From Candidatus Limnocylindria bacterium (GTDB lineage: Bacteria > Chloroflexota > Limnocylindria > Limnocylindrales > CSP1-4), in NCBI GenBank assembly GCA_046566045.1, contig JBKHXL010000014.1, positions 4,917 to 68,916 on the forward strand: DNA of 64,000 bases, written 5' to 3'. The notes below the pieces were generated by a model. That model had not been told where the DNA came from. It saw nothing but the letters and a program-made list of their open reading frames with translations, and ran no database searches. Positions 4,206-33,669 of this stretch are shown one piece after another. Every line of letters starts with the position of its first letter. The first letter of the stretch is position 1. The translations under genes and the position numbers were made by a program.

Positions 4206-5063
4206 ATGACGTCCATCGCCGCCGACGCCGGTGAACGCGAGCCCGCCCCCGGGCCCGGCTCCATCCCAGCCGACAAGAGCCGCTCCCTCCGCCGATGGAA
4301 CCGCTTCCTGACCCTGGCCCATGGCCTGCAGTTCGTGGCCATGATCGCGATCTCCCGGACCACGGCCGTGTTCGAGCCGACCGTCCCGACCGTCCGTCCG
4401 ATCATCGAGGACGGGCAGTTCACCGGGGTCGAGCCGTCGAGCGTCATGCTCTTCTCCATCCCGCTCGCGTACGTCATCGCCTCGTTCTTCTTGATGAGCG
4501 CGATCGCCCACGCCTCCGCCGGGTGGTTCCTGCGCAGCAGGTACGAGGCCTGGCTGGCTCGCGGCATGAATCCCCTGCGCTGGGTCGAGTACGCGTTCTC
4601 TTCCACCGTGATGATCGTGGCCATCGCCTACATCAGCTACATCACGGACTTCCCCGCGCTCATCGCCATCGCGGGCGCCAACGTCGCGATGAACCTGTTC
4701 GGATGGAGCATGGAAGCGGCCAACGAGGGTCGTCTGGAGGCCGGCCAGCGCATCGATTGGAAGCACTTCATCTTCGGGTGCATCGCCGGGATCGCGCCGT
4801 GGATCGGGATCTTCTCCATCATCTGGGCGTACTCCGCCCAGGAGGGCCTGCCCGCCGACGCGGGGATCCCGGCGTTCGTGTACGTGATCATCGCCAGCCT
4901 GTTCGTCGCCTTCAACGTCTTCGCGATCACGATGGTGCTGCAGTACCGCCGGGTCGGCCGCTGGCGCGAGTACCTCTACGGTGAGAAGACCTACATGGTC
5001 CTGAGCCTGGTCGCGAAGTCGCTCCTCGCCTGGCAGGTCTGGTCGGGCACGCTGCGGCCGTAG
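4206..5063 (+). CDS. Heliorhodopsin (microbial rhodopsin with inverted topology)
   Basis: 285 aa with 7 TM helices. It is strongly similar to characterised heliorhodopsin 48C12 across TM3 (RWVEYAFSSTVMIVAIAY, conserved Glu counterion), TM6 (FGCIAGIAPWIGIF) and TM7, where the retinal Schiff-base Lys lies in YMVLSLVAKSLLAWQVWSGTLRP. ATG at 4206. Confidence 0.85.
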   Translation: MTSIAADAGEREPAPGPGSIPADKSRSLRRWNRFLTLAHGLQFVAMIAISRTTAVFEPTVPTVRPIIEDGQFTGVEPSSVMLFSIPLAYVIASFFLMSAIAHASAGWFLRSRYEAWLARGMNPLRWVEYAFSSTVMIVAIAYISYITDFPALIAIAGANVAMNLFGWSMEAANEGRLEAGQRIDWKHFIFGCIAGIAPWIGIFSIIWAYSAQEGLPADAGIPAFVYVIIASLFVAFNVFAITMVLQYRRVGRWREYLYGEKTYMVLSLVAKSLLAWQVWSGTLRP

Positions 5064-16618: not shown

Positions 16619-17383
16619 GTGACCGAGCCTGCCGCCACGCCCATGGTCGTCGTCGTGATGCCCGCCTACAACGCGGCCAGGACGCTCGAGCGGACGTACG
16701 CCGACATCCCCCACGACCGCGTCGCGCGGATCATCCTGGTCGACGACGTGTCCCGCGACGAGACGGTGGACATCGCCCGTCAGCTCGGCCTCGACGTGAT
16801 CATCCACCAGCAGAACCTGGGCTACGGCGGCAACCAGAAGACGTGCTACGACGCGGCCCTCGCCGCGGGGGCCGACGTGGTCGTCATGCTCCACCCCGAC
16901 TACCAGTACGACGCGACCCGCATCCCCGACCTGATCGCGCCGATCCTCGCCGGCGAGCGCGACCTGATGCTGGGCAGCCGCTTCCTCGGCGATCCGCTGG
17001 CCGGGGGCATGCCGCGCTGGAAGTACGTCAGCAACCGCTTCCTGACGACGATCGAGAACGTCGCCTTCGGTCTGCGCCTGTCCGAGTACCACACCGGCCT
17101 GCGGGCGTACAGCCGCCGGCTGCTCGAGACGATCCCGTTCCACGCCAACAGCGACGACTTCGTGTTCGACCAGGAGCTCATCGCCCAGACCGTGGCCGCG
17201 GGCATGCGGCGGCGCATCGGCGAGATCGCGGTCCCGACCCGCTACTTCGAGGAGGCCAGCTCGGTCGGCTTCCGGCGCAGCGTCGTGTACGGCCTGTCCA
17301 CCCTGCGCGTCGTGGCCCGCTACGTGCTGCACCGCGTCCGGCTCCGGCGCTCCGACAAGTTGACCGCGCGCGACGAGTCGTGA
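16619..17383 (+). CDS. Family 2 glycosyltransferase
   Basis: GT-A fold motifs: [27 protein letters not shown] (DxD-like) and a QxxRW-like region. The GTG start at 16619 and the ATG at 16643 are both in frame. Confidence 0.8.
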
Positions 17384-20003: not shown

Positions 20004-20795
20004 TCAGCCGATCGTCCCCGGCTCTCGCGGCGGGTCGAGCGCCTCGGCGACGGCTCGAGCCGCGCCGGGCAGCAGCCCGACCACGAGGGAACGCCAGCGG
20101 CGCCCGCAGCGGGCGGCCGGACCGATCACCCCGATGGCGGCCAGGATCCCGTCCGGGCCCATGACCGGCGCGGCGACGGCCACCGAGCCTCGGATCGACT
20201 CGCCCTCGCTGACCGCCAGGCCGGTCGCCGCGATCGCGTCGAGCTCCGCCGGTAGCCGCGCGGCGTCGGGCGTCGAGGCCGTCAGGCGGACGAGGTCCGA
20301 GCGGAGGACGGTTTCGCGGATGTCGATCGGCGCGAACGCCAGGAGGACCTTGGACAGGGCTCCGGCATGGAGCGGCGACGAGGTCCCGGGGTCCAGGCTG
20401 ACCCGCAGCGGCTGCGCCGACTCGACCTGGTGGAGGCGCATCGCCGCCAGACCGACCCGTCGGCTGATGACGGCGGTCTCGCCGGTGCGCCGTGCAAGGT
20501 CGTCGAGGACCGGGCCGGCGGCCTGGATGAGGGCAGCGGCCGTCACGGTCTCGCCGCTTTCGATGACGAGGCGGGCGCCCAGCCGGTAACCGGCCCCGTG
20601 CCGTTCGGTGAAGCCGAACTCGGTCAGGGTGCGCAGGTAGCGGTAGATGGTCGAGATCGGCGTGTCGAGCAGCGCCGACAGCTCGTCCGCCCGGATCTCG
20701 CCGCGGTCGGCCACGGTCAGGAGGACGCGCAGGCCGCGGGCGAACGACGAGTCCTCACCGGCTTCCTCGGGCGGTCGGTCCAGCGCGGTGCTCAT
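20004..20795 (-). CDS. IclR family transcriptional regulator
   Basis: 263 aa from ATG 20795. N-terminal wHTH (LRVLLTVADRGEIRADELSALLDTPISTIYRYLRTLTEFGF) followed by an IclR effector domain. It is divergent from the enolase-superfamily gene. Confidence 0.85.
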   Translation of the reverse strand: MSTALDRPPEEAGEDSSFARGLRVLLTVADRGEIRADELSALLDTPISTIYRYLRTLTEFGFTERHGAGYRLGARLVIESGETVTAAALIQAAGPVLDDLARRTGETAVISRRVGLAAMRLHQVESAQPLRVSLDPGTSSPLHAGALSKVLLAFAPIDIRETVLRSDLVRLTASTPDAARLPAELDAIAATGLAVSEGESIRGSVAVAAPVMGPDGILAAIGVIGPAARCGRRWRSLVVGLLPGAARAVAEALDPPREPGTIG

Positions 20796-20847
20796 GATGT
20801 CGGCCGACAGTACCCCAATCGACCGGGGTCGGCGATACTGCGCGACG

Positions 20848-21957
20848 ATGCGCATCACCGCGATCCGCCTGGAGCGCCTGGTCGTCCCGCTCGATCCGCC
20901 GTTCCCGGCGGCGTGGGATCCCGTGCCGCGCACCCGATCCCACGTGACCATCGTGCGGGTCGAGACCGACGAGGGCGTGGTCGGCATCGGCTCGGGCGAC
21001 ACGATGGACGGGTTCGAGGCGTTCGAGCACCTGTTCATCGGGGAGGACCCGCTGGCCATCGTCCGGCACGTCCGGGTCCTCGAGACGATCGACTTCCACG
21101 CCGGTCGCTACTGGCCGCTGGAGGTCGCCCTGTGGGACATCATCGGCACCGTCGCCGGCCTGCCCGTGGCCACCCTGTTCGGCGGGGCGAGCGACGGCAT
21201 CCCCGCCTACGCGTCGTGCGGGTCGCTGCTGGCGCCCGCGGCACGGGCGGAATCGGCGCTGCGGATGCGCGAGGAGGGCTTCCGTGCCCTGAAGATCCGG
21301 ATCGATCCGCGCCGGCTCGATGAAGGTCTGGCCGCCGTCGCCGCGACGCGCGTCGCGGTCGAGGACTCGATGGCCATCATGGTCGACCTCAACCAGGGCT
21401 GGCGGATGGCCGGTGACGTGTCGCCATCGCTCGGTCCGGCCGATGCCCGCCGGATCGTGGCCCGCCTGGCCGACTACGACGTCCTGTGGGTCGAGGAACC
21501 GCTGGCCGGGACGGACCTGCGCGGCCTGGCCGGCCTGCGCGCGACGTCGCCCGGCCCGCGCATCGCCGGCGGCGAGATGACCAGGACGTTCGCGGAGGCC
21601 CTGGCCGCCCTCGACGCGGACGCCTTCGACGTGGTGCAGAGCGACGTCGTTCTGGCCGCCGGGATGCTCCGGACGCGCACGGTGGGGGAGCTGGCCCTCG
21701 CTCGCAACCGCTGGTTCACGCCCCACACCTGGACGAACGGGATCGGGCTGCTGGCCAACCTGCACGTCGCCGCGGGGGTCGGCGGGGGACCGTTCATCGA
21801 GTTCCCGTACGATCCGCCGGGCTGGACCCCGGAGCGCCGCGACGCGATGCTGGCCGAGCCGGTCCGGCCCGACCGCGACGGCGTCCTGCGCGTGCCCGCC
21901 ATGCCAGGCCTCGGCATCACCCTGGACGAAGCGGCCATCGCGAGGTACCGGGCATGA
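20848..21957 (+). CDS. Enolase-superfamily enzyme (mandelate racemase / muconate lactonizing enzyme family)
   Basis: 369 aa. The metal-ligand and catalytic pattern is typical of MR/MLE (KIRIDP..., MVDLNQGW, DVLWVEEP, DVVQSD). Possibly an amino-acid-betaine epimerase or dehydratase, given the context. Confidence 0.8.
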   Translation: MRITAIRLERLVVPLDPPFPAAWDPVPRTRSHVTIVRVETDEGVVGIGSGDTMDGFEAFEHLFIGEDPLAIVRHVRVLETIDFHAGRYWPLEVALWDIIGTVAGLPVATLFGGASDGIPAYASCGSLLAPAARAESALRMREEGFRALKIRIDPRRLDEGLAAVAATRVAVEDSMAIMVDLNQGWRMAGDVSPSLGPADARRIVARLADYDVLWVEEPLAGTDLRGLAGLRATSPGPRIAGGEMTRTFAEALAALDADAFDVVQSDVVLAAGMLRTRTVGELALARNRWFTPHTWTNGIGLLANLHVAAGVGGGPFIEFPYDPPGWTPERRDAMLAEPVRPDRDGVLRVPAMPGLGITLDEAAIARYRA

Positions 21958-23465
21958 CTCCCGCCAGCACCCTGACCGCCGCCGACTGGCTCGAGCGGGC
22001 CGCCGCTCTCGCGCCGCGCAGCGAGCTGTTCATCGACGGGCGGTTCGTGCCGGCCGCGTCCGGTCGGACGTTCGACGACATCGCCGGTCGGGACGGGTCG
22101 GTCATCGCAGCCGTCGCCGATGGCGACACCGAGGACGTGGACCGCGCGGTCGCCGCGGCCCGTCGCTCGTTCGACGACCGGCGCTGGGCCGACCGCTCGC
22201 CGGCCGCGCGCAAGGCGATCCTGCTGCGCCTGGCCGAGCTGATCCGCGCGAACCTCGAGGAGCTGGCGCTGCTCGAGTCGCTCGATGTCGGCAAGCCGAT
22301 CCGCGACACGCTGTCGGTGGACGTGCCGTCGGCGGCCAGGACCATCCAGTGGTACGCCGAGACCATCGACAAGGTCTACGGCGAGATCGGTCCGACGGCC
22401 CCGGGATCGCTGTCGCTGGTCACCCGCGAGCCGATCGGCGTGGTCGGGGCGATCGTGCCCTGGAACTACCCGTTGATCATCACCGCCTGGAAGCTCGGCG
22501 CAGCCCTGGCGACCGGCAACAGCGTGGTGCTGAAGCCGGCGTCGCAGTCGCCGCTCAGCGCCCTGCGGCTGGCAGAGCTGGCGGCCGAAGCCGGCCTGCC
22601 CGCTGGCGTGCTCAACGTCGTGACCGGCCCGGGCGCGGTCATCGGCGACGCGCTGGCGCGCCATCCGGGCGTGGACAAGATCGCCTTCACCGGCTCGACG
22701 GAGGTCGGCAAGTCGCTCCTGCGCGCGATCGGCGACAGCGACGTCAAGGCCATCTCGCTCGAACTCGGCGGCAAGAGCCCGCAGGTCGTCCTGGCCGACG
22801 TGGGCGATCTCGAGGCCGCGGCCAGCGCGATCGGCTGGGGGATCTTCTACAACAGCGGGCAGACGTGCAACGCGGGCTCGCGCCTGGTCGTCCATCGCAG
22901 CGTCCGCGACGAGCTCGTCGAGCGGATCGCGGCGCTCGGGCGGGAGCTCAGCCCCGGCGAGCCGCTCGATCCGGCGACCCAGCTCGGCTCGATCGTGGAC
23001 GCTCGGCAGCTCGACCGGGTGCTGGGCTACATCCGCCTCGGCGAGGCGGAGGGGGCGACGGTCGTGGCGGGCGGCCGGCGGGTGCGCGAGGACAGCGGCG
23101 GGTACTTCGTGCCGCCGACCATCCTCGACGGCGTGTCCAACGACTGGCGGGTGGCCCGCGAGGAGATCTTCGGGCCGGTCCTGACCGTGACCGAGTTCGA
23201 GGACGAGGCCGACGCACTGCGCATCGCCAACGACACGCCGTTCGGGCTCGCGGCGGGCCTGTGGACCCGCGACGTCAACAAGGCGCACCGCCTGTCCCGC
23301 GCCATCCGGGCCGGCATCGTCTTCGTCAACACGTTCGACACGGCCGACGTGACCGTCCCGTTCGGCGGGTTCAAGCAGTCGGGCTTCGGGCGCGACAAGT
23401 CGCTCCATGCGCTCGACGGCTACACCCAGCTCAAGACGACCTGGTTCGACCTGAGCGGGGAGTGA
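21954..23465 (+). CDS. NAD(P)-dependent aldehyde dehydrogenase
   Basis: 503 aa with the ALDH signatures ELGGKSP, the catalytic Cys context FYNSGQTCNAGSR, and EEIFGPV. ATGA overlap with the upstream gene. Confidence 0.9.
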   Translation: MTPASTLTAADWLERAAALAPRSELFIDGRFVPAASGRTFDDIAGRDGSVIAAVADGDTEDVDRAVAAARRSFDDRRWADRSPAARKAILLRLAELIRANLEELALLESLDVGKPIRDTLSVDVPSAARTIQWYAETIDKVYGEIGPTAPGSLSLVTREPIGVVGAIVPWNYPLIITAWKLGAALATGNSVVLKPASQSPLSALRLAELAAEAGLPAGVLNVVTGPGAVIGDALARHPGVDKIAFTGSTEVGKSLLRAIGDSDVKAISLELGGKSPQVVLADVGDLEAAASAIGWGIFYNSGQTCNAGSRLVVHRSVRDELVERIAALGRELSPGEPLDPATQLGSIVDARQLDRVLGYIRLGEAEGATVVAGGRRVREDSGGYFVPPTILDGVSNDWRVAREEIFGPVLTVTEFEDEADALRIANDTPFGLAAGLWTRDVNKAHRLSRAIRAGIVFVNTFDTADVTVPFGGFKQSGFGRDKSLHALDGYTQLKTTWFDLSGE

Positions 23466-23588
23466 GGGCGGGCAGGCCCGCGTGGTGGCCCTGCGCCACA
23501 TCGTGGTACAGCGCGCCGGGACGCGGCGCGATATCGTGCGGGGCAGACCCCGCCGCCCCGGGCCGGTCCACCTGACGAGGTAGCACGC

Positions 23589-25154
23589 GTGACCGACAAC
23601 GAGCTCCCGGCCGGGGGCCCCGCGCCCCGACGCCGCGGCGGCGGTCGCCTGGGACACGATCGGCCGTCCGGCCCGCCGCAGCGGCCGTGGGCCCAGCCGC
23701 GCCTGGGCTTCCGCCCCACCGAGCTGCTGTCGGCGGACGAGCTCGAGTCGATCCACCTCGCGTCGCTGCGGATCCTGGCCGAGATCGGCATGGACTTCCT
23801 CGACGCGGACGCTCGCCAGGCGCTGCGCGCCGCGGGGGCCGAGACCTCGCCCGACAGCCAGCGCGTCCGCTTCGACCCGGACCTCGTGATCGAACGCATC
23901 CGGACCGCCCCGCCCGAGTTCACCCTGCACGCCCCCAACCCGGACCGCCACCTGCGCATCGGCGGCGACTGGCTGGCCTTCGGGACCGTCGGGAGCCCGC
24001 CCAACGTGGCCGACCTCGACCGCGGCCGGCGGATCGGCAACCGCGAGGACTACCAGAACCTGCTCCGCCTCGGCCAATCCCTGACGCCGGTCCACTTCCT
24101 GGCCGGCTACCCGGTCGAGCCCGTGGACCTCCACCACGGCGTGCGCCATCTGCACGCCACGTTCGACGCCCTGACCCTCATGGACAAGGCGATCCACTGC
24201 TACAGCCTCGGCCGGCAGCGCAACCTCGACGTCCTCGAGATGGTGCGCATCGTGCGCGGCATCGACGAGGCGACCGTGGACCGCGAGCCGTCCGTCTTCA
24301 CCGTGGTCAACTCGAGCTCGCCGCTGCGCCTCGACGCGCCGATGCTGCAGGGCATCATGGCCTTCGCCGCGCGCAACCAGGTCGTGTGCATCACCCCGTT
24401 CACGCTCAGCGGCGCGATGGCCCCCGTGACCCTCGCCGGCGCCCTGGCCCAGCAGAACGCCGAGGCGCTGGCGGGCATGGTCCTGACCCAGGTGGTGCGA
24501 CCGGGGGCGCCGGTCATCTACGGCGGCTTCACCTCGAACGTGGACATGCAGTCGGGGGCGCCGGCCTTCGGCACGCCCGAGTACATGCGCACGGCGATGA
24601 TCGGCGGGCAGCTCGCCCGGCGCTACGGCGTGCCGTACCGGAGCTCGAACGTGTGCGCCGCGAACGCGCTCGATGCGCAGGCCGCCTACGAGAGCGTGTT
24701 CAGCCTGTGGGGCGCGATCATGGGCGGGGTCAACCTGCTGATGCACGGGGCCGGCTGGATGGAGGGCGGCCTGCACGCGAGCTACGAGAAGATGATCCTC
24801 GACGCCGAGCTGCTGGGGATGGTCGAGGCGTTCCTCGACCCGGTCGTGGTGGACGACGACACGCTCGGTTTCGAGGCCATGCAGGAGGTCGGTCCGGGCG
24901 GCCACTTCTTCGGCGCGGCGCATACCCAGTCGCGCTTCAAGACGGCGTTCCACAAGCCGATGCTCAGCGACTGGCGCAACTACGAGACGTGGCAGGAGGC
25001 CGGCTCCCCGGAGGTGCCGGGCAAGGCCAACCGCATCTGGAAAGAGTTGCTGGCGAGCTACGAGCCACCGCCCATGGACGCGGCCGTGCGCGAGGAGCTC
25101 GAGGCGTTCGTCGCCCGGCGCGTGGCCGAGGGCGGCGTCCCGACGGATTACTAG
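23589..25154 (+). CDS. MttB-family (trimethylamine methyltransferase superfamily, non-pyrrolysine) quaternary-amine:corrinoid methyltransferase homolog
   Basis: 521 aa with a TIM-barrel MttB-type sequence throughout (LSADELESIHLASLRILAEIGMDF ... C-terminal KANRIWKELLASYEPPPMD). No in-frame amber codon. No corrinoid-protein or MtgA-like gene lies nearby. Confidence 0.75.
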   Translation: MTDNELPAGGPAPRRRGGGRLGHDRPSGPPQRPWAQPRLGFRPTELLSADELESIHLASLRILAEIGMDFLDADARQALRAAGAETSPDSQRVRFDPDLVIERIRTAPPEFTLHAPNPDRHLRIGGDWLAFGTVGSPPNVADLDRGRRIGNREDYQNLLRLGQSLTPVHFLAGYPVEPVDLHHGVRHLHATFDALTLMDKAIHCYSLGRQRNLDVLEMVRIVRGIDEATVDREPSVFTVVNSSSPLRLDAPMLQGIMAFAARNQVVCITPFTLSGAMAPVTLAGALAQQNAEALAGMVLTQVVRPGAPVIYGGFTSNVDMQSGAPAFGTPEYMRTAMIGGQLARRYGVPYRSSNVCAANALDAQAAYESVFSLWGAIMGGVNLLMHGAGWMEGGLHASYEKMILDAELLGMVEAFLDPVVVDDDTLGFEAMQEVGPGGHFFGAAHTQSRFKTAFHKPMLSDWRNYETWQEAGSPEVPGKANRIWKELLASYEPPPMDAAVREELEAFVARRVAEGGVPTDY

Positions 25155-25230
25155 CGATGCGCTACGGCACGTCGATCGACCAGGTCCGACCGGGATCGAC
25201 CTGCGACTGGTCGACGACTAGTCTACGTTC

Positions 25231-25470
25231 ATGAAGACCATCGGTTCGTACGCAGCCAAGACGCACCTGCCACGCCTGCTCGATGAGGTGGAGCGGGGAG
25301 AGCGGATCACCATCACGAAGCATGGGCGGCCCGTCGCGATGCTCGTGCCCCCCGGGACGACGGCGGCGGTCGACGCCGAGGCACTGATCGGCTGGATGCG
25401 CGAGTTCCGCAGAGACCACCCCCTCGATGGCGCGACCATCCGGGACTTGATCGACGACGGACGTCGCTGA
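25231..25470 (+). CDS. Type II antitoxin, Phd/YefM (VapB-like) family
   Basis: 79 aa. MKTIGSYAAKTHLPRLLDEVERGERITITKHGRPVAMLVP is the canonical Phd/YefM N-terminus. Its stop overlaps the toxin start (TGATG). Confidence 0.85.
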   Translation: MKTIGSYAAKTHLPRLLDEVERGERITITKHGRPVAMLVPPGTTAAVDAEALIGWMREFRRDHPLDGATIRDLIDDGRR

Positions 25471-25877
25471 TGTTCGTCGTCGATGCGTCAGTCATCCTCG
25501 CGTGGAGCCTTGAAGATAAGTCGAGCGAAGCAGCGGAATCGGCGGTCGAGCGCCTCCTCGCGGAGGGCGGCCTCGCTCCTGCGCATTGGCCGCTCGAGAT
25601 CGCGAACGGCCTCCGATCGGCCGAGCGTCGCGGGTGGATCGACGAGCCGTCCATCCGTCGACTGGCGGCCAGACTTGCCGGGCTCCCGGTCGACATCGCG
25701 CCGGTCGAACTGTCGACGGCCCTGGGCGTCATCGCGGCGGCTCGCCGTCATGACCTCTCCGTGTACGACGCTGCCTACCTCGATCTCGCCGATGTTCGTG
25801 GGCTCCCCCTCGCGACCGTCGACGATCGACTCGCCCGTGCATGCCGCGCGGCCGGCGTGCCGCTGATCAGCGACTGA
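25470..25877 (+). CDS. vapC: PIN-domain ribonuclease toxin VapC
   Basis: 135 aa. MFVVDASVILAW starts the PIN fold, with acidic residues at the expected positions (D5, E..., D...). Confidence 0.85.
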   Translation: MFVVDASVILAWSLEDKSSEAAESAVERLLAEGGLAPAHWPLEIANGLRSAERRGWIDEPSIRRLAARLAGLPVDIAPVELSTALGVIAAARRHDLSVYDAAYLDLADVRGLPLATVDDRLARACRAAGVPLISD

Positions 25878-25958
25878 TCACCGCGTGCATGAGTCTGACC
25901 CGCCGCCGCTCGCGATCGCTCGCGTAGGCTTCTGTCGTCATCAAGTCCGGAGGGCCCG

Positions 25959-28424
25959 TTGAAGCGAGAGACCCAGGTCGTCGTCATCGGTGGCGGTGTC
26001 GTCGGCGCGAGCGTCCTGTACCACCTGACCAGGCTTGGCTGGACCGACGTGATGCTCCTGGAGCGGCGCGAGCTGACCGCGGGTTCCACGTGGCACGCGG
26101 CCGGCGGGATGCACACCCTCAACGGCGACCCGAACGTGGCTCGCCTGCAGCAGTACACGATCCAGCTGTACGAGGAGATCCAGCGCAGCTCCGGCCAGGA
26201 CTGCTCGATCCACCTGCCGGGCGGCCTGATGCTGGCCGACACGGAGGTCCGCATGGACTTCCTGCGCATGGCGCAGGCGCGCGGTCGCTACCTGGGCATG
26301 GAGCTGGAACTCATCACGCCCAAGGAGGCGCAGGACCTCTTCCCCTTGCTCGATCCGCAGTACTTCGTCGGCGCCCTGTACGACCCGGTCGAGGGCCACG
26401 TCGACCCGTCCGGCGTGACCCGGGCGTACGCGAAGAGCGCCCAGCTGGCCGGCGCGGAGGTCCACCAGCACACGCCCGTCACGGGTCTGTCGCAGCGGAC
26501 CGATCGGACCTGGGACGTCGCGCTGGAGAACGGCGAGTCGATCCATGCCGAGCATGTCGTCAACTGCGGCGGCCTGTGGGCGCGCGAGGTGGGGCGGATG
26601 GTCGGCATCGAGCTGCCCGTCCTGGCCATGGAACACCACTACCTCATCACCGAGGACATGCCGGAGGTCGCCGCCCACGTCGCGCGGACCGGTCGCGAGA
26701 TGCCCATGGCCCTCGACTTCAAGGGCGAGATCTACATCCGCCAGGAGGGCGGGGCGATGCTGCTCGGTACGTACGAGCAGGCCTGCGTGCCGTGGTCGCC
26801 GAAGCAGACGCCGTGGGACTTCGGCTCACAGCTGCTGAAGCCCGACCTGGAGCGCCTGACGCCCGAGCTGTCGGTCGCGTTCAAGCACTACCCGGCCATG
26901 GGCACGACGGGGATCCGGCGCGTGGTCAACGGCCCGTTCACGTTCGCCCCGGACGGCAACCCGCTGGTCGGCCCGATCCGCGGGCTGCGGGGCTTCTGGG
27001 TCGCCTGCGGGGTCATGGCCGGGCTGTCCCAGGGCGGCGGTGTGGGCCTGGCCCTCGCCACCTGGATGACCGCCGGCGACCACGGCGACAGCGGCATGGA
27101 CATCTGGGGCATGGACGTCGCCCGCTTCGGCGACTACGCCACGCTGGCGTACACCAACGCCAAGGTCCAGGAGAACTACCGGCGCCGGTTCCGGATCACC
27201 TTCCCGAACGAGGAACTACCCGGCGCCCGGCCCCTGCTGACCACGCCGATCCACGACCGCCTGACCGCGGCCAACGCGGTCTGGGGCGCGACCTTCGGCC
27301 TGGAGCACGCCCTGTGGTTCCAGGAGCCCGGGCTCGAGCCGAAGGAGGAGGTCACCTTCCGGCGCTCGAACGCCTGGCCGCAGGTCGCCGCCGAGGTGCG
27401 GGCCGTCCGCGAGCGCGTCGGCATGACCGAGATCTCGAACTACGCCAAGTACCGCGTCACGGGCCCGGGCGCCGAGGCCTGGCTGTCGTCGCTGCTGACC
27501 GCGCGGATGCCGGCGCCCGGGCGCATCACCCTGACGGCGATGCTCAACGACGCGGGCCGCATCGTCGGGGAGTTCACGGTCGCCCGGGCGTCCGAGGCGG
27601 ACGAGTTCCACCTCTTCGGCTCGCTGCCGGCCGAGGTCCACCACTCGCGCTGGTTCATCCATCACCTGCCCGACGACGGGTCCGTGCGCTTCGAGGTCCT
27701 CGGGCTCGGCCTGGTGGGACTGTCCGTGGCCGGGCCGCGCTCGCGCGACGTGCTGCAGGCGGTCGCGCCCGACCTCGACCTGTCGACCGAGGGCTTCCCG
27801 TTCATGACCTTCCGGCGGGTGGACCTCGGGATGATCCCGGTCCATCTGGCTCGCATCAACTACGCCGGCGATCTGGGCTACGAGCTGTGGGTCGCGCCGC
27901 AGTACCAGCGCGCCCTGTTCGACGCGATCGTGGCCGCGGGCGAGCCCCACGGCCTGCGCCTGTTCGGGATGCGCGCCCTGATGTCGCTTCGCCTCGAGAA
28001 GAACTACGGCACGTGGTTCCGCGAGTACCGGCCGATCTACACGGTCCCGGAGGCCGGGCTGCAGCGCTACGTCCGCCTCGATCACGACTTCATCGGTCGC
28101 GAGGCGTACGAGCGCCAGCTGGCAAGCGCCGTCGAGCGCCGGCTCGTGGCCCTGGTCGTCGAGCCCGATCCGGACGACCCGGCCGACGTCATCGGCGACG
28201 AGCCGATCTGGCATCACGACGAGGTCGTGGGCTGGGTCACCTCCGGCGGGTACCTGCACAGTGCTGGCGCCTCGCTGGCGTTGGGCTACGTGCCGGCCGC
28301 GCTGGCCTCGCCGGATGGCCCGGGCGGCGACGGGTTCGAGATCGAGATCATCGGCCAGCGGCGGCCGGCGCGCCTCCAGCCGGAGCCGATGTTCGACCCG
28401 ACCGGCGCCCGGATGCGCCAGTGA
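25959..28424 (+). CDS. Dimethylglycine/sarcosine dehydrogenase family flavoenzyme (FAD-dependent oxidoreductase fused to a GcvT-like folate-binding domain)
   Basis: 821 aa. N-terminal VVVIGGGVVGASVLYHL dinucleotide fold with a covalent-FAD His context. The C-terminal aminomethyltransferase-like domain includes YAGDLGYELW. TTG start with GGAGGG about 7 nt upstream. Confidence 0.85.
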   Translation: MKRETQVVVIGGGVVGASVLYHLTRLGWTDVMLLERRELTAGSTWHAAGGMHTLNGDPNVARLQQYTIQLYEEIQRSSGQDCSIHLPGGLMLADTEVRMDFLRMAQARGRYLGMELELITPKEAQDLFPLLDPQYFVGALYDPVEGHVDPSGVTRAYAKSAQLAGAEVHQHTPVTGLSQRTDRTWDVALENGESIHAEHVVNCGGLWAREVGRMVGIELPVLAMEHHYLITEDMPEVAAHVARTGREMPMALDFKGEIYIRQEGGAMLLGTYEQACVPWSPKQTPWDFGSQLLKPDLERLTPELSVAFKHYPAMGTTGIRRVVNGPFTFAPDGNPLVGPIRGLRGFWVACGVMAGLSQGGGVGLALATWMTAGDHGDSGMDIWGMDVARFGDYATLAYTNAKVQENYRRRFRITFPNEELPGARPLLTTPIHDRLTAANAVWGATFGLEHALWFQEPGLEPKEEVTFRRSNAWPQVAAEVRAVRERVGMTEISNYAKYRVTGPGAEAWLSSLLTARMPAPGRITLTAMLNDAGRIVGEFTVARASEADEFHLFGSLPAEVHHSRWFIHHLPDDGSVRFEVLGLGLVGLSVAGPRSRDVLQAVAPDLDLSTEGFPFMTFRRVDLGMIPVHLARINYAGDLGYELWVAPQYQRALFDAIVAAGEPHGLRLFGMRALMSLRLEKNYGTWFREYRPIYTVPEAGLQRYVRLDHDFIGREAYERQLASAVERRLVALVVEPDPDDPADVIGDEPIWHHDEVVGWVTSGGYLHSAGASLALGYVPAALASPDGPGGDGFEIEIIGQRRPARLQPEPMFDPTGARMRQ

Positions 28425-30631
28425 CCGAGCCCGCCGCGGGACCCGTCGGGCGGATGGTCCTCGACGGGCGGCCGACCGGTTTCGAGCCGGGCGACTCGGT
28501 GGCCGTGGCGATCGTGCGCGCCGGGGAGTCGCCCGGCCGCGGCGGCACGCTGTGCCTCGCCGGCGACTGCGGCAACTGCCTCGGCGTCGTCGACGGCGTG
28601 GCCTACGTGCGGACCTGCCAGGTGCCGGCCCGCCCCGGCCTGCGGGTCGAACGGCATCCGGGGAGCGGCAACCCGCCGCTCCCCGTGGTGGACGCCGGGA
28701 ACCCGGTCGTGGCGCCGCTCGGCCGCGACATCCCGGTCCGCCGCGCCACCGTCGAGACGGTCATCGTCGGTGGCGGCGAGGCCGGCCGGCGGGCCGCGGC
28801 CGAGCATCCCGCCGCCCTCCGGCTCGATGCGGCGGAGGGCGACGAGGTCGTCGCCGTGTACCCGGGCCCGACCGTCGTGGCGCGCACGCCCGCCGGGATG
28901 CTGCACGTGGAGACGGACGACATCATCGTCGCCACCGGCGCCGCCGAGATCCAGCCGGCCTGCCCCGGCAACGACCTCGACGGCCTGCTCACCCCGCGCG
29001 CCGCGGCGACGCTCCGGGCCGCGGGGGTCGCCCTGCCCGAGCCGATCGTGACCGTGGGCCCGGAGCTGACCCGGCTCGAGGGCGACGCGGGCGGGCGGGT
29101 CCGGTCGGTCGTCACCCGGGGACCGGACGGCAACGAGACGACGACCCCGGCACGGACCGTGATCGTCGATCTCGGCCTGGCGCCACGCGACCTGCTGGCG
29201 CGCATGGCCGCCCCCGGCACCGCGGTGACCGCGGTCGGCGCGGCGGCCGAGGCCCAGCCGCTCCCAGCGGCCCCGTCCGATCCCGCGGCCGTCGTGTGTC
29301 GCTGCATGGACGTCACGGTCGCCGATCTCGACGAGGCGTGGGCGAAGGGCTTCACCGAGCTCGAGCTCCTCAAGCGTGCGACGCTCGCCGGGATCGGGAC
29401 GTGCCAGGGTGGTGCCTGCCTGCCCCACGTCCGGGCCTGGATCGCGGCGCGGACCGGCGAGGTGCCGGATCCGTTCACGGCGCGGCCGGCGTCCCGCCAG
29501 ATCACCCTCGCCGAGGCCGCCGCGGATACCACGGTGGACGCCTTCCGGCGGACCCCGCTGCACGACGAGCACCTGGCCCTCGGCGCCCGGATGGACCGCT
29601 TCGGCTCGTGGTGGCGGCCGTGGCACTACGGCGACGCCGTGGCGGAATACTGGGCGGTCCGGACCGGGGTCTCGATCGGCGACGTGAGCACCCTCGGCAA
29701 GCTCGTGGTCAGCGGACCGGACGCGGTCGAGGCGCTCGAGCGGCTGTATCCGTGCCACGTCGCGGACATCAGGGTCGGCCGCTCGCGCTACGCCCTCCTG
29801 CTCGACGAGCGGGGCCACGTCCTGGACGACGGCATGATCCTGCGCGACGGGGAGACGCGCTTCACGCTGTCGTTCACGTCGGGCGGTGCGTCCAACGCCG
29901 AGATGTGGGTGCGCGACTGGGTCGACGAGTGGGGCCTGCGCGTGCACGTGATGGACCGGACGATGTCGCTCGGCGCGATCAACGTCACGGGGCCGCTCGC
30001 CGGGGAGCTGCTCGGCCGCCTCGGCCTGCCGGAGCCGCCGCGCTTCCTCGGGCATGTCCGGGCCGAGATCGCGGGCGTGCCCTGTCACGTCATGCGCCTG
30101 TCATTCACCGGCGAGGCCGCGCTCGAGCTGCACCACCCGATCGACCGCTCGGTCGAGCTGTGGCGGGCGCTCCTGGACGCCGGGCGGGACCTGGGCATCC
30201 GACCACACGGCCTGCAGGCCCTGTTCGGGCTACGCCTCGAGAAGGGCCACGTCATCGTCGGCATGGACACCGAGCTCGATACCACGCCCCATCGGCTGGG
30301 CATGGACTGGGCGGTACGCATGGACAAGCCGCGGTTCATCGGTCGCGGCGCCCTCGCCCGCGTGGCGACGCTGCCCGACGAGCGCCGCTGGGTCGGGTTC
30401 ACGATGGACGGCCCGGCGCCGGTCGAGGGCACGCCGATCCTCGACGTCGATGGCCGCGAGGTCATCGGCAACGTGACGGGGAGCTGGCACTCCCCGCTGC
30501 TGGGCAGGGCCCTGATGCTCGGCTGGCAACGGCGCCCGCCGCACCCGGAGCGTGTCCGCATCGACGGGCGCGAGGCGGTCGTGACCGCCACGCCGTTCTA
30601 CGACCCGGAGGGCCACCGTGCCCGGGCGTGA
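28421..30631 (+). CDS. soxA: Sarcosine oxidase alpha subunit (heterotetrameric SoxA-type)
   Basis: 736 aa: N-terminal 2Fe-2S-like Cys cluster (CLAGDCGNC), NAD/FAD-binding fold, and C-terminal GcvT domain. GTGA overlap with the upstream gene. The 1513-aa track ORF is an in-frame read-through artefact. Confidence 0.85.
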   Translation: MTEPAAGPVGRMVLDGRPTGFEPGDSVAVAIVRAGESPGRGGTLCLAGDCGNCLGVVDGVAYVRTCQVPARPGLRVERHPGSGNPPLPVVDAGNPVVAPLGRDIPVRRATVETVIVGGGEAGRRAAAEHPAALRLDAAEGDEVVAVYPGPTVVARTPAGMLHVETDDIIVATGAAEIQPACPGNDLDGLLTPRAAATLRAAGVALPEPIVTVGPELTRLEGDAGGRVRSVVTRGPDGNETTTPARTVIVDLGLAPRDLLARMAAPGTAVTAVGAAAEAQPLPAAPSDPAAVVCRCMDVTVADLDEAWAKGFTELELLKRATLAGIGTCQGGACLPHVRAWIAARTGEVPDPFTARPASRQITLAEAAADTTVDAFRRTPLHDEHLALGARMDRFGSWWRPWHYGDAVAEYWAVRTGVSIGDVSTLGKLVVSGPDAVEALERLYPCHVADIRVGRSRYALLLDERGHVLDDGMILRDGETRFTLSFTSGGASNAEMWVRDWVDEWGLRVHVMDRTMSLGAINVTGPLAGELLGRLGLPEPPRFLGHVRAEIAGVPCHVMRLSFTGEAALELHHPIDRSVELWRALLDAGRDLGIRPHGLQALFGLRLEKGHVIVGMDTELDTTPHRLGMDWAVRMDKPRFIGRGALARVATLPDERRWVGFTMDGPAPVEGTPILDVDGREVIGNVTGSWHSPLLGRALMLGWQRRPPHPERVRIDGREAVVTATPFYDPEGHRARA

Positions 30632-30998
30632 GCGGATGCCCGGCGTGCGGGTGGTGGCCGAGCCGGCCGCCCTCGATGGCGCGCGCTGGGCCGGCGATGG
30701 GGTCATCGTCCTGCGGACCGCTCCGGACGAGGCGCTGGCCCTGGGCGCGACCGGTGTCGAGGTCGCCGATCCGCACGCCATCGTCGAGGCCGACGCCGGC
30801 TTCGTCGGCGGGCCCGTGGATCTCGAGCGGGTCATGGCCCATGTCGAGTGGGGGCTGCCCGCCGAGCGCCCGGCCCTCGCCCAGGGTTCGATCGCGGGCG
30901 TGCCGGCGAAGCTGTGGCTGACCGATGCGGGCGCGCTCCTGGTCGTCCAGGCGGCCTGGGCCGACGAGCTCGCCGAGCGGATCGGGTGGCGGGCATGA
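30618..30998 (+). CDS. soxG: Sarcosine oxidase gamma subunit
   Basis: About 120 aa, small subunit, in the position and size expected of SoxG. Start is GTG 30618 or ATG 30636. Confidence 0.6.
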   Translation: MPGRERMPGVRVVAEPAALDGARWAGDGVIVLRTAPDEALALGATGVEVADPHAIVEADAGFVGGPVDLERVMAHVEWGLPAERPALAQGSIAGVPAKLWLTDAGALLVVQAAWADELAERIGWRA

Positions 30999-32215
30999 GC
31001 GACTACACCCGGACCCTGCTTCCGATCCGCTGGCCCGACGGGCCGCCCAAGCGCAGATACGACGTGGTCATCATCGGCGGCGGCGGCCACGGGCTGTCCA
31101 CCGCCTACCACCTCGCGACTCGCCACGGGATCACCAACGTGGCGGTCATCGAGGCCGACTACATCGCCAGCGGCAACACGGGCCGGAACACGACCATCAT
31201 CCGGGCCAACTACGGCATCCCGGAGGCGGTCCGCTTCTACCAGCACTCCCTCGAGAAGTACCAGGAGCTGGAACAGGAGACCGGCGCCGCGATCCTGCAC
31301 CAGACCAAGGGCGTCATCTGGCTCGCCCATACCGAGATGGCGATGCGCACCGAGCGCGCCCGGTGCGTGCTGAACCAGGCCGTCGGCGCGGAGACCATGA
31401 TGCGGACGCCGGCCGAGCTCAAGGCCCTCATCCCGCAGCTGGACCTGACCGGTGGCGGCCGCTATCCGGTGCTCGGCGGCTCGCACCACGTCCAGGGGGC
31501 GACCGCCCGCCACGATCGGGTCGCCTGGGCCTACGCCAGCATCGCGTCGCAACGTGGGGTGGACATCTTCCAGCACACCGCGGTCACGGCGATCCGGCGC
31601 GACCGTGACGGCGGGCGGGTCATCGGGGTGGATACGACGGCCGGCCCGATCGACGCCGGCGCGGTCCTGTCGGCGGCCGGTGGGCGCGTGACCCAGGTCG
31701 CGGCGATGGCCGGCCTGCGCCTGCCGGTGCGGACCCATCCGCTGCACGCCTTCGTGACCAACGACTACGCCCTGGGATTCCCCGCCGTCCTGGCCAGCAC
31801 CGAGCTCGCCTGCTACGTGTCCCAGACCGATCGCGGCCAGATGCTCATCGGCGCCGAGTTCGACAGTCAGCCCTCGTACTCGCGCCAGTCGTCGTACAGC
31901 GCCCTGCGCTCGTACAGTTACAAGATCACGCGCCTGCTGCCGTTCCTGCGCGACATGCGCATCCTGCGCACGTGGGCGGGCATCTGCGACATCTCGGTCG
32001 ATTTCTCGCCGATCATGAGCGCCACCGGCATCGACGGCTTCTACGTCACGACCGGCTGGGGCACCTGGGGCTTCAAGGCCATCCCGGCCGGCGGGGAGGG
32101 CATGGCCGAGCTCATCGCCACGGGTCGGCCACCGGCCCTCATCGCGCCATTCACCCTCGAGCGCTTCCGGCGCGACCACGCGCTGGCCGACGCCGGGTCG
32201 ACGGGAACGCGCTGA
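30995..32215 (+). CDS. soxB: Sarcosine oxidase beta subunit
   Basis: 406 aa, DAO-family flavoprotein (YDVVIIGGGGHGLSTAYHLA; covalent-FAD His context HGxS). ATGA overlap with soxG. Confidence 0.9.
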   Translation: MSDYTRTLLPIRWPDGPPKRRYDVVIIGGGGHGLSTAYHLATRHGITNVAVIEADYIASGNTGRNTTIIRANYGIPEAVRFYQHSLEKYQELEQETGAAILHQTKGVIWLAHTEMAMRTERARCVLNQAVGAETMMRTPAELKALIPQLDLTGGGRYPVLGGSHHVQGATARHDRVAWAYASIASQRGVDIFQHTAVTAIRRDRDGGRVIGVDTTAGPIDAGAVLSAAGGRVTQVAAMAGLRLPVRTHPLHAFVTNDYALGFPAVLASTELACYVSQTDRGQMLIGAEFDSQPSYSRQSSYSALRSYSYKITRLLPFLRDMRILRTWAGICDISVDFSPIMSATGIDGFYVTTGWGTWGFKAIPAGGEGMAELIATGRPPALIAPFTLERFRRDHALADAGSTGTR

Positions 32216-32228
32216 TGGGCGGCCGCTG

Positions 32229-32471
32229 ATGCACCACCTCGACTGCCCGCGCTGCGGCCGCCGGCCGCTGGAGGAGTTCACCTTCGGCGGCGAGCGTCGC
32301 CCGGTGCCCGACACCATCACCGACCCGGACGAGCGTGACTTCGACGAGGTCTGGATCCTCGAGAACCCGGACGGTGAGACGACCGAGCGCTGGTTCCACG
32401 GTCACGGCTGCCGGCGCTGGCTGACCGTCCGGCGCGACACGTCGATCGACCGCGTGCTGGAGGTGCGCTGA
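32229..32471 (+). CDS. soxD: Sarcosine oxidase delta subunit
   Basis: 80 aa with a Zn-ribbon-like pattern (CPRCG ... HGHGCRRW), typical of SoxD. Confidence 0.8.
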   Translation: MHHLDCPRCGRRPLEEFTFGGERRPVPDTITDPDERDFDEVWILENPDGETTERWFHGHGCRRWLTVRRDTSIDRVLEVR

Positions 32472-32472
32472 G

Positions 32473-33669
32473 GTGCCCGCGCTCGCGGATCGGGCCTGGG
32501 AGCACGAGTTGCGCGGTCGCATCCGCTTCGGGGTCGGCGCGGTCGAGGCGCTGCCCGAGCTGATCTCGGCGGCGGACCCGGCCGGGGGCCGGCGGGCGTT
32601 CATCGTCACCGACCCCGGGGTCCTGGCCTCGGGCGTCATCGAGCGCGTGCGCGGCGTGCTCGCCGGCGGCGGCATCGAGACGGGTGTGTATGCCGCGGTG
32701 GAACCGAACCCGGGCACGAGCTCGATCCTGCGCGGGTCGGCGGCGCTGACCGCGTTCGGGGTGCCGCAGACGGTCATCCTGCCGGTCGGCGGGGGCTCGT
32801 CGATGGACAGCGCCAAGGTCATCTCGCTCCACGCCGCGAACGGCGGCGGCGTCCTGGAGCTCGGCTATCACCGCGACGACATCGTGCCGGGCGGTCCGGT
32901 CATCGCCGTCCCGACGACCGCCGGGACCGGGGCCGAGACCAACACCTACGGGGTCATCACCGACGAGGCGGCCGGGCGCAAGGGGTACGTCGGGCACCCG
33001 TCCGTGCTGCCGGTCTGGTCCGTGCTGGATCCGGCGCTCACCGTGGGACTCCCGCCGCGCGCGACCGCCGCGACCGGGGTGGACGCGATGACCCACTCGC
33101 TCGAGTCGCTGCTGTCCCGCAACCCGAACCCGTTCGCCGAGGGCATCGCCCTGCAGGTCATCCGCACCGTCCGTGCGTGGCTGCCGCGGGCCGTCGCCGA
33201 CGGCTCGGACCTGGAGGCGCGCAGCCAGCTGCTGATGGCCTCGCACCTGGCCGGGATCGGCCAGCAGAGCGGGACCGGGGTGGGCCTGGTCCACGCGCTC
33301 GGACACGCGATCGGGACGCGCGGGCGGCTCCCCCACGGGCTGGCGCTCGCGGTCGTCATGCCCGAGGTCATGGCCTTCTACGCCGACGATCATGGGTCGC
33401 GGGATCGGGAGCTGGCGCTCGTCGGGGTCGCACTCGGCGCGGCCTCACCGACCGAGGACCCGGCGACCGGCGCGGTGGCCGCCATCGGCGCGATGCGCAC
33501 GTTCCTGTCGTCGGTCGGCCTGCGGCCGTCCCTCCGCTCGCTCGGCTTCGACGACGCGCTGCTCGACGTGGTCGCCCAGGACGCCATCGACGACGCCGCG
33601 ATCGACAACTCCCCGCGGCTGCCGACGTTCGACCAGGCGCGCGCGATCCTGGGCTCTGTCCTGGGCTGA
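32473..33669 (+). CDS. Iron-containing (group III) alcohol dehydrogenase
   Basis: 398 aa. Fe-ADH motifs are present: GGGSSMDSAKV, and the His cluster HAL/GHAIG. Confidence 0.85.
   Translation: MPALADRAWEHELRGRIRFGVGAVEALPELISAADPAGGRRAFIVTDPGVLASGVIERVRGVLAGGGIETGVYAAVEPNPGTSSILRGSAALTAFGVPQTVILPVGGGSSMDSAKVISLHAANGGGVLELGYHRDDIVPGGPVIAVPTTAGTGAETNTYGVITDEAAGRKGYVGHPSVLPVWSVLDPALTVGLPPRATAATGVDAMTHSLESLLSRNPNPFAEGIALQVIRTVRAWLPRAVADGSDLEARSQLLMASHLAGIGQQSGTGVGLVHALGHAIGTRGRLPHGLALAVVMPEVMAFYADDHGSRDRELALVGVALGAASPTEDPATGAVAAIGAMRTFLSSVGLRPSLRSLGFDDALLDVVAQDAIDDAAIDNSPRLPTFDQARAILGSVLG

Follow-up and report, generated by a model that had tools for sequence, protein, structure and literature searches.

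The DNA analyzed here is a stretch of 64,000 nucleotides from a Candidatus Limnocylindria bacterium, a member of the Chloroflexota and not an actinobacterium (assembly GCA_046566045.1, contig JBKHXL010000014.1, positions 4,917 to 68,916 of the forward strand), referred to below as the window, in which a compact set of genes combines a methyltransferase of the MttB superfamily with enzymes of oxidative amine demethylation. The window has a G+C content of approximately 73%, and reading frames were picked by third-position GC and then scanned with Pfam and NCBIfam, the starts being refined. The gene set occupies positions 20004–33669, as an earlier note on this DNA had stated, and consists of the MttB, DMGDH and Sox-like genes together with IclR, enolase-superfamily, aldehyde dehydrogenase (ALDH) and iron-containing alcohol dehydrogenase (Fe-ADH) neighbours (Table 1). 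The genes adjoining it are unrelated on both sides, namely those for an ABM-like protein, a PF03601 membrane protein and a lysyl-phosphatidylglycerol synthase transmembrane protein upstream and for a luciferase-like monooxygenase, a GNAT protein and a DNA ligase downstream, and the boundaries of the island were therefore left where the earlier note had placed them. The island is probably a catabolic operon of aerobic Limnocylindria that strips a trimethylammonium carboxylate, for which glycine betaine is the likeliest candidate, of all three N-methyl groups and that depends on a distant corrinoid hub.

Table 1. Genes identified in the demethylation island (positions are those of the window).
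Feature	Position	Strand	Profile evidence
IclR-family regulator, divergent from the operon	20004-20795	-	PF09339 + PF01614
Enolase-superfamily enzyme, mandelate-racemase subgroup, dehydratase-like	20848-21957	+	MR_MLE_N/C, MR_MLE_C E=6e-48
NAD(P)-dependent aldehyde dehydrogenase (ALDH)	21954-23465	+	PF00171 E=9e-171
Non-pyrrolysine MttB-superfamily methyltransferase (MT1)	23589-25154	+	PF06253 E=4.2e-195
VapBC-type toxin-antitoxin pair, outside the pathway	25231-25877	+	PF02604 + PF01850
DMGDH-type flavoenzyme with folate-binding domain	25959-28424	+	DAO + FAO_M + GCV_T + GCV_T_C
Truncated SoxA-like (alpha) subunit	28421/28454-30631	+	Pfam: Fer2_4, short GxGxxG region, A3/BFD-like, GCV_T
126-aa conserved protein in the gamma-subunit position	30618-30998	+	homologues in 42 loci
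SoxB-like (beta) FAD subunit	30995-32215	+	PF01266
SoxD, sarcosine-oxidase delta subunit	32229-32471	+	PF04267
Iron-containing alcohol dehydrogenase (Fe-ADH)	32473-33669	+	PF00465 + PF25137

The product of the MttB gene was matched by the superfamily profile over its full length (649 bits, profile positions 3–500 of 500), which bears out its assignment to the MttB superfamily in the earlier note. Its open reading frame (ORF) comprises 521 codons with no in-frame stop/UAG (pyrrolysine) codon, and the score against the equivalog of the pyrrolysine enzyme, TIGR02369, was 304 bits at a cut-off of 525. The best solved relative was 4yyc, a putative trimethylamine methyltransferase of Sinorhizobium meliloti (E = 1.7e-109), followed by a full-length match to the glycine betaine methyltransferase MtgB of Desulfitobacterium hafniense (2qne/9yce, 8.5e-98) and by MttB 7xcl (2e-49); this comparison took in MtgB, MttB and 4YYC. 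In D. hafniense MtgB, glycine betaine is bound by Tyr97, Arg312, His348 and Phe356, and in the same study these four residues were taken as probably the smallest set that allows glycine betaine to be used (PMC13080624). R351 and H386 of the island protein align with the carboxylate-binding Arg312 and His348, and both are invariant in 79 orthologues, whereas the aromatic pair is absent, with G135 and G394 at the positions aligned with Tyr97 and Phe356. In the alignment of the 79 island orthologues, the Tyr97 position was occupied by Gly, Ala or Ser (38, 36 and 5 sequences, respectively), the 356 position by Gly in 79/79, and the Phe101 position by Asn, while a conserved Trp was found at the 352-equivalent, four residues before the 356 position. 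Because the Tyr97/Phe356 pair is absent, the protein was filed under the MttB superfamily and not as a strict MtgB. Thus, it resembles the MtgB component of the MtgB/MtgC/MtgA system in being a non-pyrrolysine member of the superfamily with both carboxylate-binding residues, and differs from it in overall identity (37%) and in both aromatic positions. Moreover, unlike in D. hafniense, its partners are not adjacent, its host lives aerobically, and the other two methyl groups would be removed oxidatively and not left on dimethylglycine. The island protein shares with 4YYC the motif W-[LM]-E-G-G-L, which replaces the Phe356 region.

The earlier note had found no corrinoid partner in the island, and its absence is confirmed for the whole 64 kb. 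The Pfam scan covered the ORFs supported by third-position GC across 1–64 kb, apart from a handful that were short or ambiguous, and detected no domain of the B12-binding, Pterin_bind, RACo, DUF1638 or MTHFR type in the window. A six-frame scan of the window for the cobalamin motif DxHxxG...SxL...GG was also negative, as was a tblastn search of it with the MtgC, DUF1638, pterin methyltransferase, RamA and MetF proteins of relatives. Rfam at the gathering threshold yielded only a tRNA in the window, with no cobalamin, tetrahydrofolate or glycine riboswitch. A gap of 800 bp after MttB was considered as a site for a corrinoid gene, since a protein of 215 aa would fit there; this candidate was rejected, as the gap is filled by genes for a Phd/YefM antitoxin (25231–25470, PF02604) and a PIN toxin (25470–25877, PF01850).

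A scan of one genome per species yielded 578 relatives of the MttB protein, and the island comparisons were made with the best 80 of the 578, which belonged to metagenome-assembled genomes (MAGs) of Candidatus Limnocylindrales/Limnocylindria (Chloroflexota, 75–91% identity) and to Acidimicrobiia and other Actinomycetota (68–78%); individual loci are given L numbers below. According to tblastn with the island proteins, DMGDH directly followed MttB in 63 of the 63 loci with at least 3 kb of downstream sequence, and the pair of alpha-like and beta-like genes, SoxA'/SoxB', came next in 38 of the 47 loci with at least 9 kb. On these counts, MttB, DMGDH and the Sox-like genes are a conserved unit across two phyla, and their association is not due to chance. 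The enolase–ALDH pair and Fe-ADH were found only in Chloroflexota loci (enolase in 34/37), and Fe-ADH sits downstream of SoxD in the Limnocylindria loci. An assembly artefact as the source of this arrangement was rejected, the gene order being identical in L001 and in dozens of other loci. It is extremely improbable that MttB came to lie by accident beside an ordinary operon for oxidative demethylation of dimethylglycine and sarcosine, or persists there as a relic with no part in it. The toxin–antitoxin pair between MttB and DMGDH in the window would suit such a history, as would a kinase gene of the ABC1 type upstream of MttB in some relatives; however, the adjacency of MttB and DMGDH has no exception in Chloroflexota and Actinomycetota, the MttB gene is intact and 68–91% identical across the related loci, and the island contains no alternative first-step enzyme (GbcAB or BHMT).

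The toxin–antitoxin insertion was also present in L011 and L033, and in most loci DMGDH abuts MttB. The kinase, an ABC1/UbiB-type atypical kinase of about 575 aa, is encoded upstream of MttB in some Limnocylindria islands (L004, L005, L011, L013, L014, L016, L017, L018, L022, L035 and L050, at approximately 8.1–9.9 kb in each), and its gene comes after that of ALDH in most of the loci carrying it; the window is without it. The islands of three contigs labelled Patescibacteria, Verrucomicrobiia and Methylomirabilota (L028, L034 and L044, respectively) were 78–82% identical to that of the window and syntenic with those of Limnocylindria, and these contigs are probably mis-binned.

Unlike the window, two Acidimicrobiia loci were matched in the scan for the cobalamin motif. 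In the Acidimicrobiales locus L075, with an MttB 73% identical to that of the window, genes for MtgC (PF02607 + PF02310), DUF1638, a Pterin_bind methyltransferase and an MTHFR-like protein divergently adjoin MttB. Genes of this corrinoid module lay no more than 10 kb from MttB in 9 of the 28 Actinomycetota loci and in two of the 52 Chloroflexota-labelled loci, L051 and L038. Directly upstream of MttB, L051 carries RamA, MetF, formate–tetrahydrofolate ligase and an OpuA-type betaine ABC transporter, and L038 has the same run from MetF onward, the captured sequence starting inside MetF and holding only its tail. The RamA fragment of L051 led to homologues assigned by NCBI to Candidatus Limnocylindrales, from these to their contigs, and from the contigs to a cluster at 90% identity. 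On Limnocylindria-type contigs, the core module has the order MtgC-DUF1638-PF13769-Pterin_bind-RamA-MttB2-MTHFR-like and is preceded by an IclR gene on the opposite strand; MttB2 is a second MttB paralogue, approximately 40–42% identical to the island MttB, and the IclR of the island is 33% identical to the IclR preceding the module. The 90%-identity cluster of MtgC, in which members are named 'Candidatus Limnocylindrales' by NCBI, comprises 2,662 sequences. One of them, P0365, is encoded at 240,439–241,140 on contig_4219 (436,172 bp), which also bears the island L004 (MFD02242.bin.2.210), with an MttB gene at approximately 141.5–143.0 kb that is 88% identical to that of the window. Consequently, in a close relative, a corrinoid hub and an island of the type studied here lie on the same strand of one contig, approximately 98 kb apart. 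Two RamA proteins listed by NCBI under 'Limnocylindrales' came from MAGs outside the island list and provided no same-genome link, and a search with the Acidimicrobiales MtgC returned, among its best 120 matches, only sequences more than 82% identical, the named sources of which were Acidimicrobiia or unclassified bacteria and none Limnocylindria.

Since the Acidimicrobiia orthologues adjoin the module and the contig of L004 carries it at a distance, a distant corrinoid partner is the best explanation for the isolated MttB gene, and the partner of the island is most likely encoded about 100 kb away, outside the window. With 20 kb of sequence upstream of the island, a window of 64 kb could not have shown a hub so far off. 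The earlier note had offered two readings, namely that the pathway is an aerobic hybrid or that MttB uses a corrinoid partner encoded far away; both are supported and hold together, the first by the oxidative DMGDH and Sox steps encoded after the MttB gene in the loci counted above. It is very unlikely that MttB works without a dedicated corrinoid protein, using free cobalamin or the cobalamin domain of methionine synthase, or passing the methyl group directly to tetrahydrofolate, which would be a new mechanism. This explanation agrees with the empty window, with the rarity of module genes near MttB in Chloroflexota-labelled loci, with the presence of a split MetH beside the core module in L083 and L088, and with the methylation of free cob(I)alamin by MtgB in vitro (PMC13080624). 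It is opposed by the adjacency of MtgC to the Acidimicrobiia orthologues and by the MtgC, RamA and pterin methyltransferase genes of Limnocylindria, found once on the same contig as an island. To our knowledge, no member of the MttB superfamily bypasses cobalamin.

Two further features of the core module should be mentioned. A small PF13769 ('Virulence_fact') protein was always encoded between DUF1638 and the pterin-binding methyltransferase (L081–L085 and L088–L091, e.g., L084 7881–8195) and occurred in Acidimicrobiia loci as well. The split methionine synthase genes adjoin the module at 14112–19911 in L083 and at 17281–19155 in L088 and encode two separate proteins, an S-methyl_trans (homocysteine) protein that in some cases is fused to MTHFR and a MetH without the homocysteine domain, an arrangement that echoes the MtgE link of roseobacters.

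The DMGDH gene product matched human DMGDH (5l46) over its full length (residues 4–819, E = 2.3e-163), and all four Pfam domains were present. It belongs to the DMGDH-type family, and its specificity for dimethylglycine, as opposed to sarcosine, is putative. The adjoining genes had been described as a SoxABDG set, of which candidates for the beta and delta subunits were found, while the alpha subunit proved to be truncated and the small ORF had no detectable similarity to SoxG. The SoxA-like protein is about 725 aa long, compared with approximately 965 aa for a full-length alpha subunit, and matched the alpha chain of heterotetrameric sarcosine oxidase (TSOX; 1vrq/2gag) only at residues 487–961; against TIGR01372 it scored 263 bits (cut-off 1164), only at positions 513–995. 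The N-terminal half, that is, the large dinucleotide-binding region (residues 1–486), is missing, and the protein starts with a Fer2_4 domain whose four-cysteine motif C-x4-C-x2-C-x12-C suggests an Fe-S cluster. This truncated form is common to the Limnocylindria and Acidimicrobiia loci. The scores of the SoxB-like subunit with TIGR01373 (405 bits, cut-off 529) and of SoxD with TIGR01374 (68.7 bits, cut-off 116.5) were below the cut-offs, whereas that of SoxD with PF04267 was above it (76 bits, cut-off 27).

The 126-aa protein is encoded between the alpha-like and beta-like genes and is conserved in that position in 42 related loci. It had no Pfam match (including SoxG, PF04268) and no NCBIfam match, a 25-sequence profile of its family did not detect the TSOX gamma chain in the PDB, and Foldseek found no significant fold match for its single-sequence AlphaFold2 model, which was of low confidence (pLDDT 60). 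Thus, the island set is similar to SoxABDG (1X31/1VRQ, 2GAG) in its beta-like FAD subunit, its putative delta subunit and the C-terminal A3 and folate-binding GCV_T parts of alpha; it differs in the Cys-rich Fer2_4 domain in place of the residue 1–486 region and in the gene order, which is alpha, small ORF, beta, delta instead of soxBDAG.

The enolase-superfamily enzyme had been called epimerase/racemase-type, as in proline-betaine pathways, and this designation was not upheld. Its residues K149-x-R151, D180, E216, E243, D266 and H293 were invariant in five homologues and map onto positions of mandelate racemase, K149/R151, D266 and H293 corresponding to K164/K166, D270 and H297. The His/Asp dyad of the mandelate-racemase subgroup is therefore present, and Arg stands in place of the second Lys of the KxK motif, a pattern that suits single-base dehydratases and not two-base racemases. 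The best PDB match was 4ggb (3.5e-29), the nearest solved or curated relatives were acid-sugar dehydratases and cycloisomerases, and the NCBIfam scores were far below the cut-off. HpbD, the 2-epimerase of the hydroxyproline and proline betaine pathway, was not among the best 60 PDB matches. The island is like the HpbD system in having an enolase-superfamily gene in a betaine-related neighbourhood; unlike HpbD, which belongs to the muconate-lactonizing subgroup with two opposed lysine bases at the ends of strands 2 and 6, the island enzyme has the dyad and the K-x-R motif, and no Rieske demethylase or Pyr4H2C deaminase is encoded in the island. The enzyme thus resembles dehydratases rather than epimerases of the HpbD type. 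Homologues with 46% identity were found near MttB in two Actinomycetota loci (L057 and L061), beside a flavoprotein of the Old Yellow Enzyme (OYE) type, and a link of the enzyme to amine catabolism is possible. This flavoprotein, which combines OYE-type FMN and Pyr_redox domains, occurs near the MttB island of Actinomycetota in L057 (2901–5057), L061, L075, L076 and L078 and belongs to the family of the DgcA/StcD-type N-demethylases and trimethylamine dehydrogenase.

The start codon of ALDH overlaps the enolase stop codon (ATGA), which indicates translational coupling. ALDH scored 618 bits with the NCBIfam model of PuuC and 508 bits with that of betaine-aldehyde dehydrogenase (TIGR01804, cut-off 668.6), both below the cut-offs, and Fe-ADH was likewise below all of them, with 230 bits for lactaldehyde reductase and 215 bits for GbsB (cut-off 550). 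ALDH is a possible betaine-aldehyde dehydrogenase, and Fe-ADH may be a GbsB-type choline dehydrogenase.

The families of the enzymes and the context of their genes lead us to infer the following steps for the pathway. MttB would transfer one methyl group to Co(I) of a small corrinoid protein encoded outside the island, in a separate core module with an MtgC-like protein, DUF1638, a pterin-binding methyltransferase, RamA, MttB2 and an MTHFR-like enzyme. The pterin-binding methyltransferase would hand the methyl group from MtgC to tetrahydrofolate, after which it would be oxidized by the MTHFR-like enzyme, while the reductive activase RamA, possibly together with DUF1638, would re-reduce inactive Co(II); several substrate-specific MttB enzymes may share one such hub. 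In the second step, DMGDH would take the next methyl group oxidatively into methylene-tetrahydrofolate, and in the third, the sarcosine-oxidase-like complex would remove the last one to give glycine, both acting via their folate-binding domains. IclR would regulate the operon. Fe-ADH and ALDH may, as a weak inference, make betaine from choline in the roles of GbsB and GbsA.

Glycine betaine is the likely substrate in view of the invariant link to DMGDH, the presence of three demethylases for three methyl groups, the transporters, and the GMC and Fe-ADH/ALDH enzymes. OpuA-type transporters adjoin the island in L038, L051, L054 and ten sister Limnocylindria loci, in the latter upstream of the enolase gene, and GMC (BetA-family) oxidoreductases are encoded in Actinomycetota loci and beside the core module. 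Several points weigh against glycine betaine or against the pathway as a whole. The paralogue MttB2, which stands beside MtgC, and 4YYC, the function of which is putative, retain the Tyr97 and Phe101 equivalents, whereas the island clade has Gly, Ala or Ser and Asn at these positions; hence, glycine betaine could be the substrate of MttB2, and the island MttB could act on another compound. Proteobacterial homologues with 56–60% identity and the same small-residue signature occur in contexts other than DMGDH. A glycine betaine pathway has no place for the enolase-superfamily enzyme, and ALDH and Fe-ADH fall below the curated betaine-aldehyde and choline dehydrogenase cut-offs, other ALDH and ADH models scoring equally or higher. 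Finally, the corrinoid partner was not seen in the 64 kb of source sequence examined.

In the light of these points, an alternative is that the same distant hub serves an island MttB acting on another acidic quaternary amine, such as carnitine or a proline-type or other amino-acid betaine, which we consider unlikely. DMGDH and the Sox-like complex would then demethylate the tertiary and secondary amines, and the enolase-superfamily enzyme, ALDH and Fe-ADH would process the resulting hydroxy or amino acid, for example from carnitine via 4-amino-3-hydroxybutyrate and succinate semialdehyde to succinate. Such a substrate would accord with the loss of the Tyr97/Phe101 equivalents that MttB2, 4yyc and MtgB possess, and with the view that glycine betaine use probably requires at least the full MtgB motif (PMC13080624). 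It would also accord with the translationally coupled enolase and ALDH genes, kept in 34/37 Chloroflexota loci, with the enolase homologues beside an OYE-type demethylase-like flavoprotein in Actinomycetota, and with the scores of ALDH on succinate-semialdehyde and aminobutyraldehyde dehydrogenase models, which were good, and of Fe-ADH on a 4-hydroxybutyrate dehydrogenase model. Likewise, a Mesorhizobium homologue (57%) with the same signature adjoins Rieske, 2-oxoglutarate (2OG)-oxygenase and Ldh-family genes. However, the core that is invariant in two phyla is MttB with the three-step demethylation, including a DMGDH matching the human enzyme at 2e-163, and dimethylglycine arises only from glycine betaine. 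In addition, the Acidimicrobiia islands are without the enolase-superfamily enzyme, ALDH and Fe-ADH, and some of them have GMC (BetA-family) oxidoreductases, which, like the OpuA betaine transporters of some Limnocylindria, fit choline or glycine betaine.

A more specific proposal along these lines is that the island MttB, with a small residue in place of Tyr97, Asn in place of Phe101 and a deletion of one residue following the catalytic Arg, represents a distinct specificity class, firmly tied to DMGDH and the truncated Sox-like complex in Chloroflexota and Acidimicrobiia that are abundant in soil and fresh water. Its substrate would be other than glycine betaine, which MttB2 would handle, and the island MttB, the enolase-superfamily enzyme, ALDH and Fe-ADH would make up a new aerobic route for the complete demethylation and subsequent degradation of a larger betaine, e.g., carnitine; this proposal we regard as decidedly unlikely. 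The clade specificity could be tested in a cultured strain, Mesorhizobium sp. WSM1497, whose plasmid pWSM1497 carries the 57% identical homologue, in which a small residue likewise takes the place of Tyr97 (L092, 12004–18399). Its neighbours are genes for two oxygenases, one of the 2OG-Fe(II) and one of the Rieske type, for an oxidoreductase of the Ldh family, for LysR and for an ABC binding protein, and no corrinoid gene was present within 12 kb of it.

The proposed complete demethylation of glycine betaine with a distant hub has its closest counterpart in the aerobic MtgBCD(E) system of Ruegeria pomeroyi and Phaeobacter inhibens (glycine betaine demethylase/split methionine synthase). Such a scheme was proposed for R. 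pomeroyi, whose mtgB, mtgC and mtgD genes are dispersed and in which one MtgC serves as many as seven PF06253 paralogues, and dimethylglycine and sarcosine genes were found near the mtgBCD of other marine bacteria (Mausz et al. 2025, PMC12478193); the scheme is supported by a knockout of mtgB1 in P. inhibens (bioRxiv 10.64898/2025.12.19.695462). The earlier note had treated the island as an odd case on the grounds that the partners are normally adjacent; this premise is not supported, since dispersed MtgB, MtgC and MtgD were published for aerobes in 2025 (PMC12478193; bioRxiv 10.64898/2025.12.19.695462). The arrangement described here is similar to that system in its PF06253 MT1, for which the corrinoid protein, the pterin-binding methyltransferase, RamA, DUF1638 and a MetF paralogue would, to judge by the relatives, be encoded elsewhere, in the several MttB paralogues that would share a hub, in the position of the MT1 gene away from mtgC, and in the aerobic host. 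A further likeness, seen in the window and in the related loci, is that genes for the demethylation of dimethylglycine and sarcosine lie close to that of MT1. The differences are the lineage, namely Chloroflexota with Actinomycetota relatives instead of Pseudomonadota, an identity of at most about 50% between the island MttB and its homologues on roseobacter plasmids, the small residue at the Tyr97 position, and the truncated Sox alpha subunit. The island represents, in a new lineage, a system already published in 2025, and not a new kind of system.

Elsewhere in the window, a heliorhodopsin gene (PF18761, E = 1e-78) was found at 4206–5063 on the forward strand, adjoining a TetR regulator and a paaABCD-like cluster.

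What is new here is a clade of MttB enzymes with an altered aromatic cage, a truncated Sox alpha subunit with an accompanying putative small subunit, and a dehydratase-like enzyme. The altered cage makes the substrate specificity of the clade a testable question. Moreover, one should not conclude from an 'orphan' MttB gene that it is partner-less, because the hub can be 100 kb away. If the proposed pathway is correct, cobalamin-dependent betaine demethylation would extend beyond anaerobes and marine proteobacteria and would also belong to the standard traits of Limnocylindria and Acidimicrobiia, two groups that abound in soils and fresh water. In that case, the environmental demand for vitamin B12 would be wider, and the MttB–DMGDH pair and the MtgC core module would provide gene markers of betaine turnover in soil.

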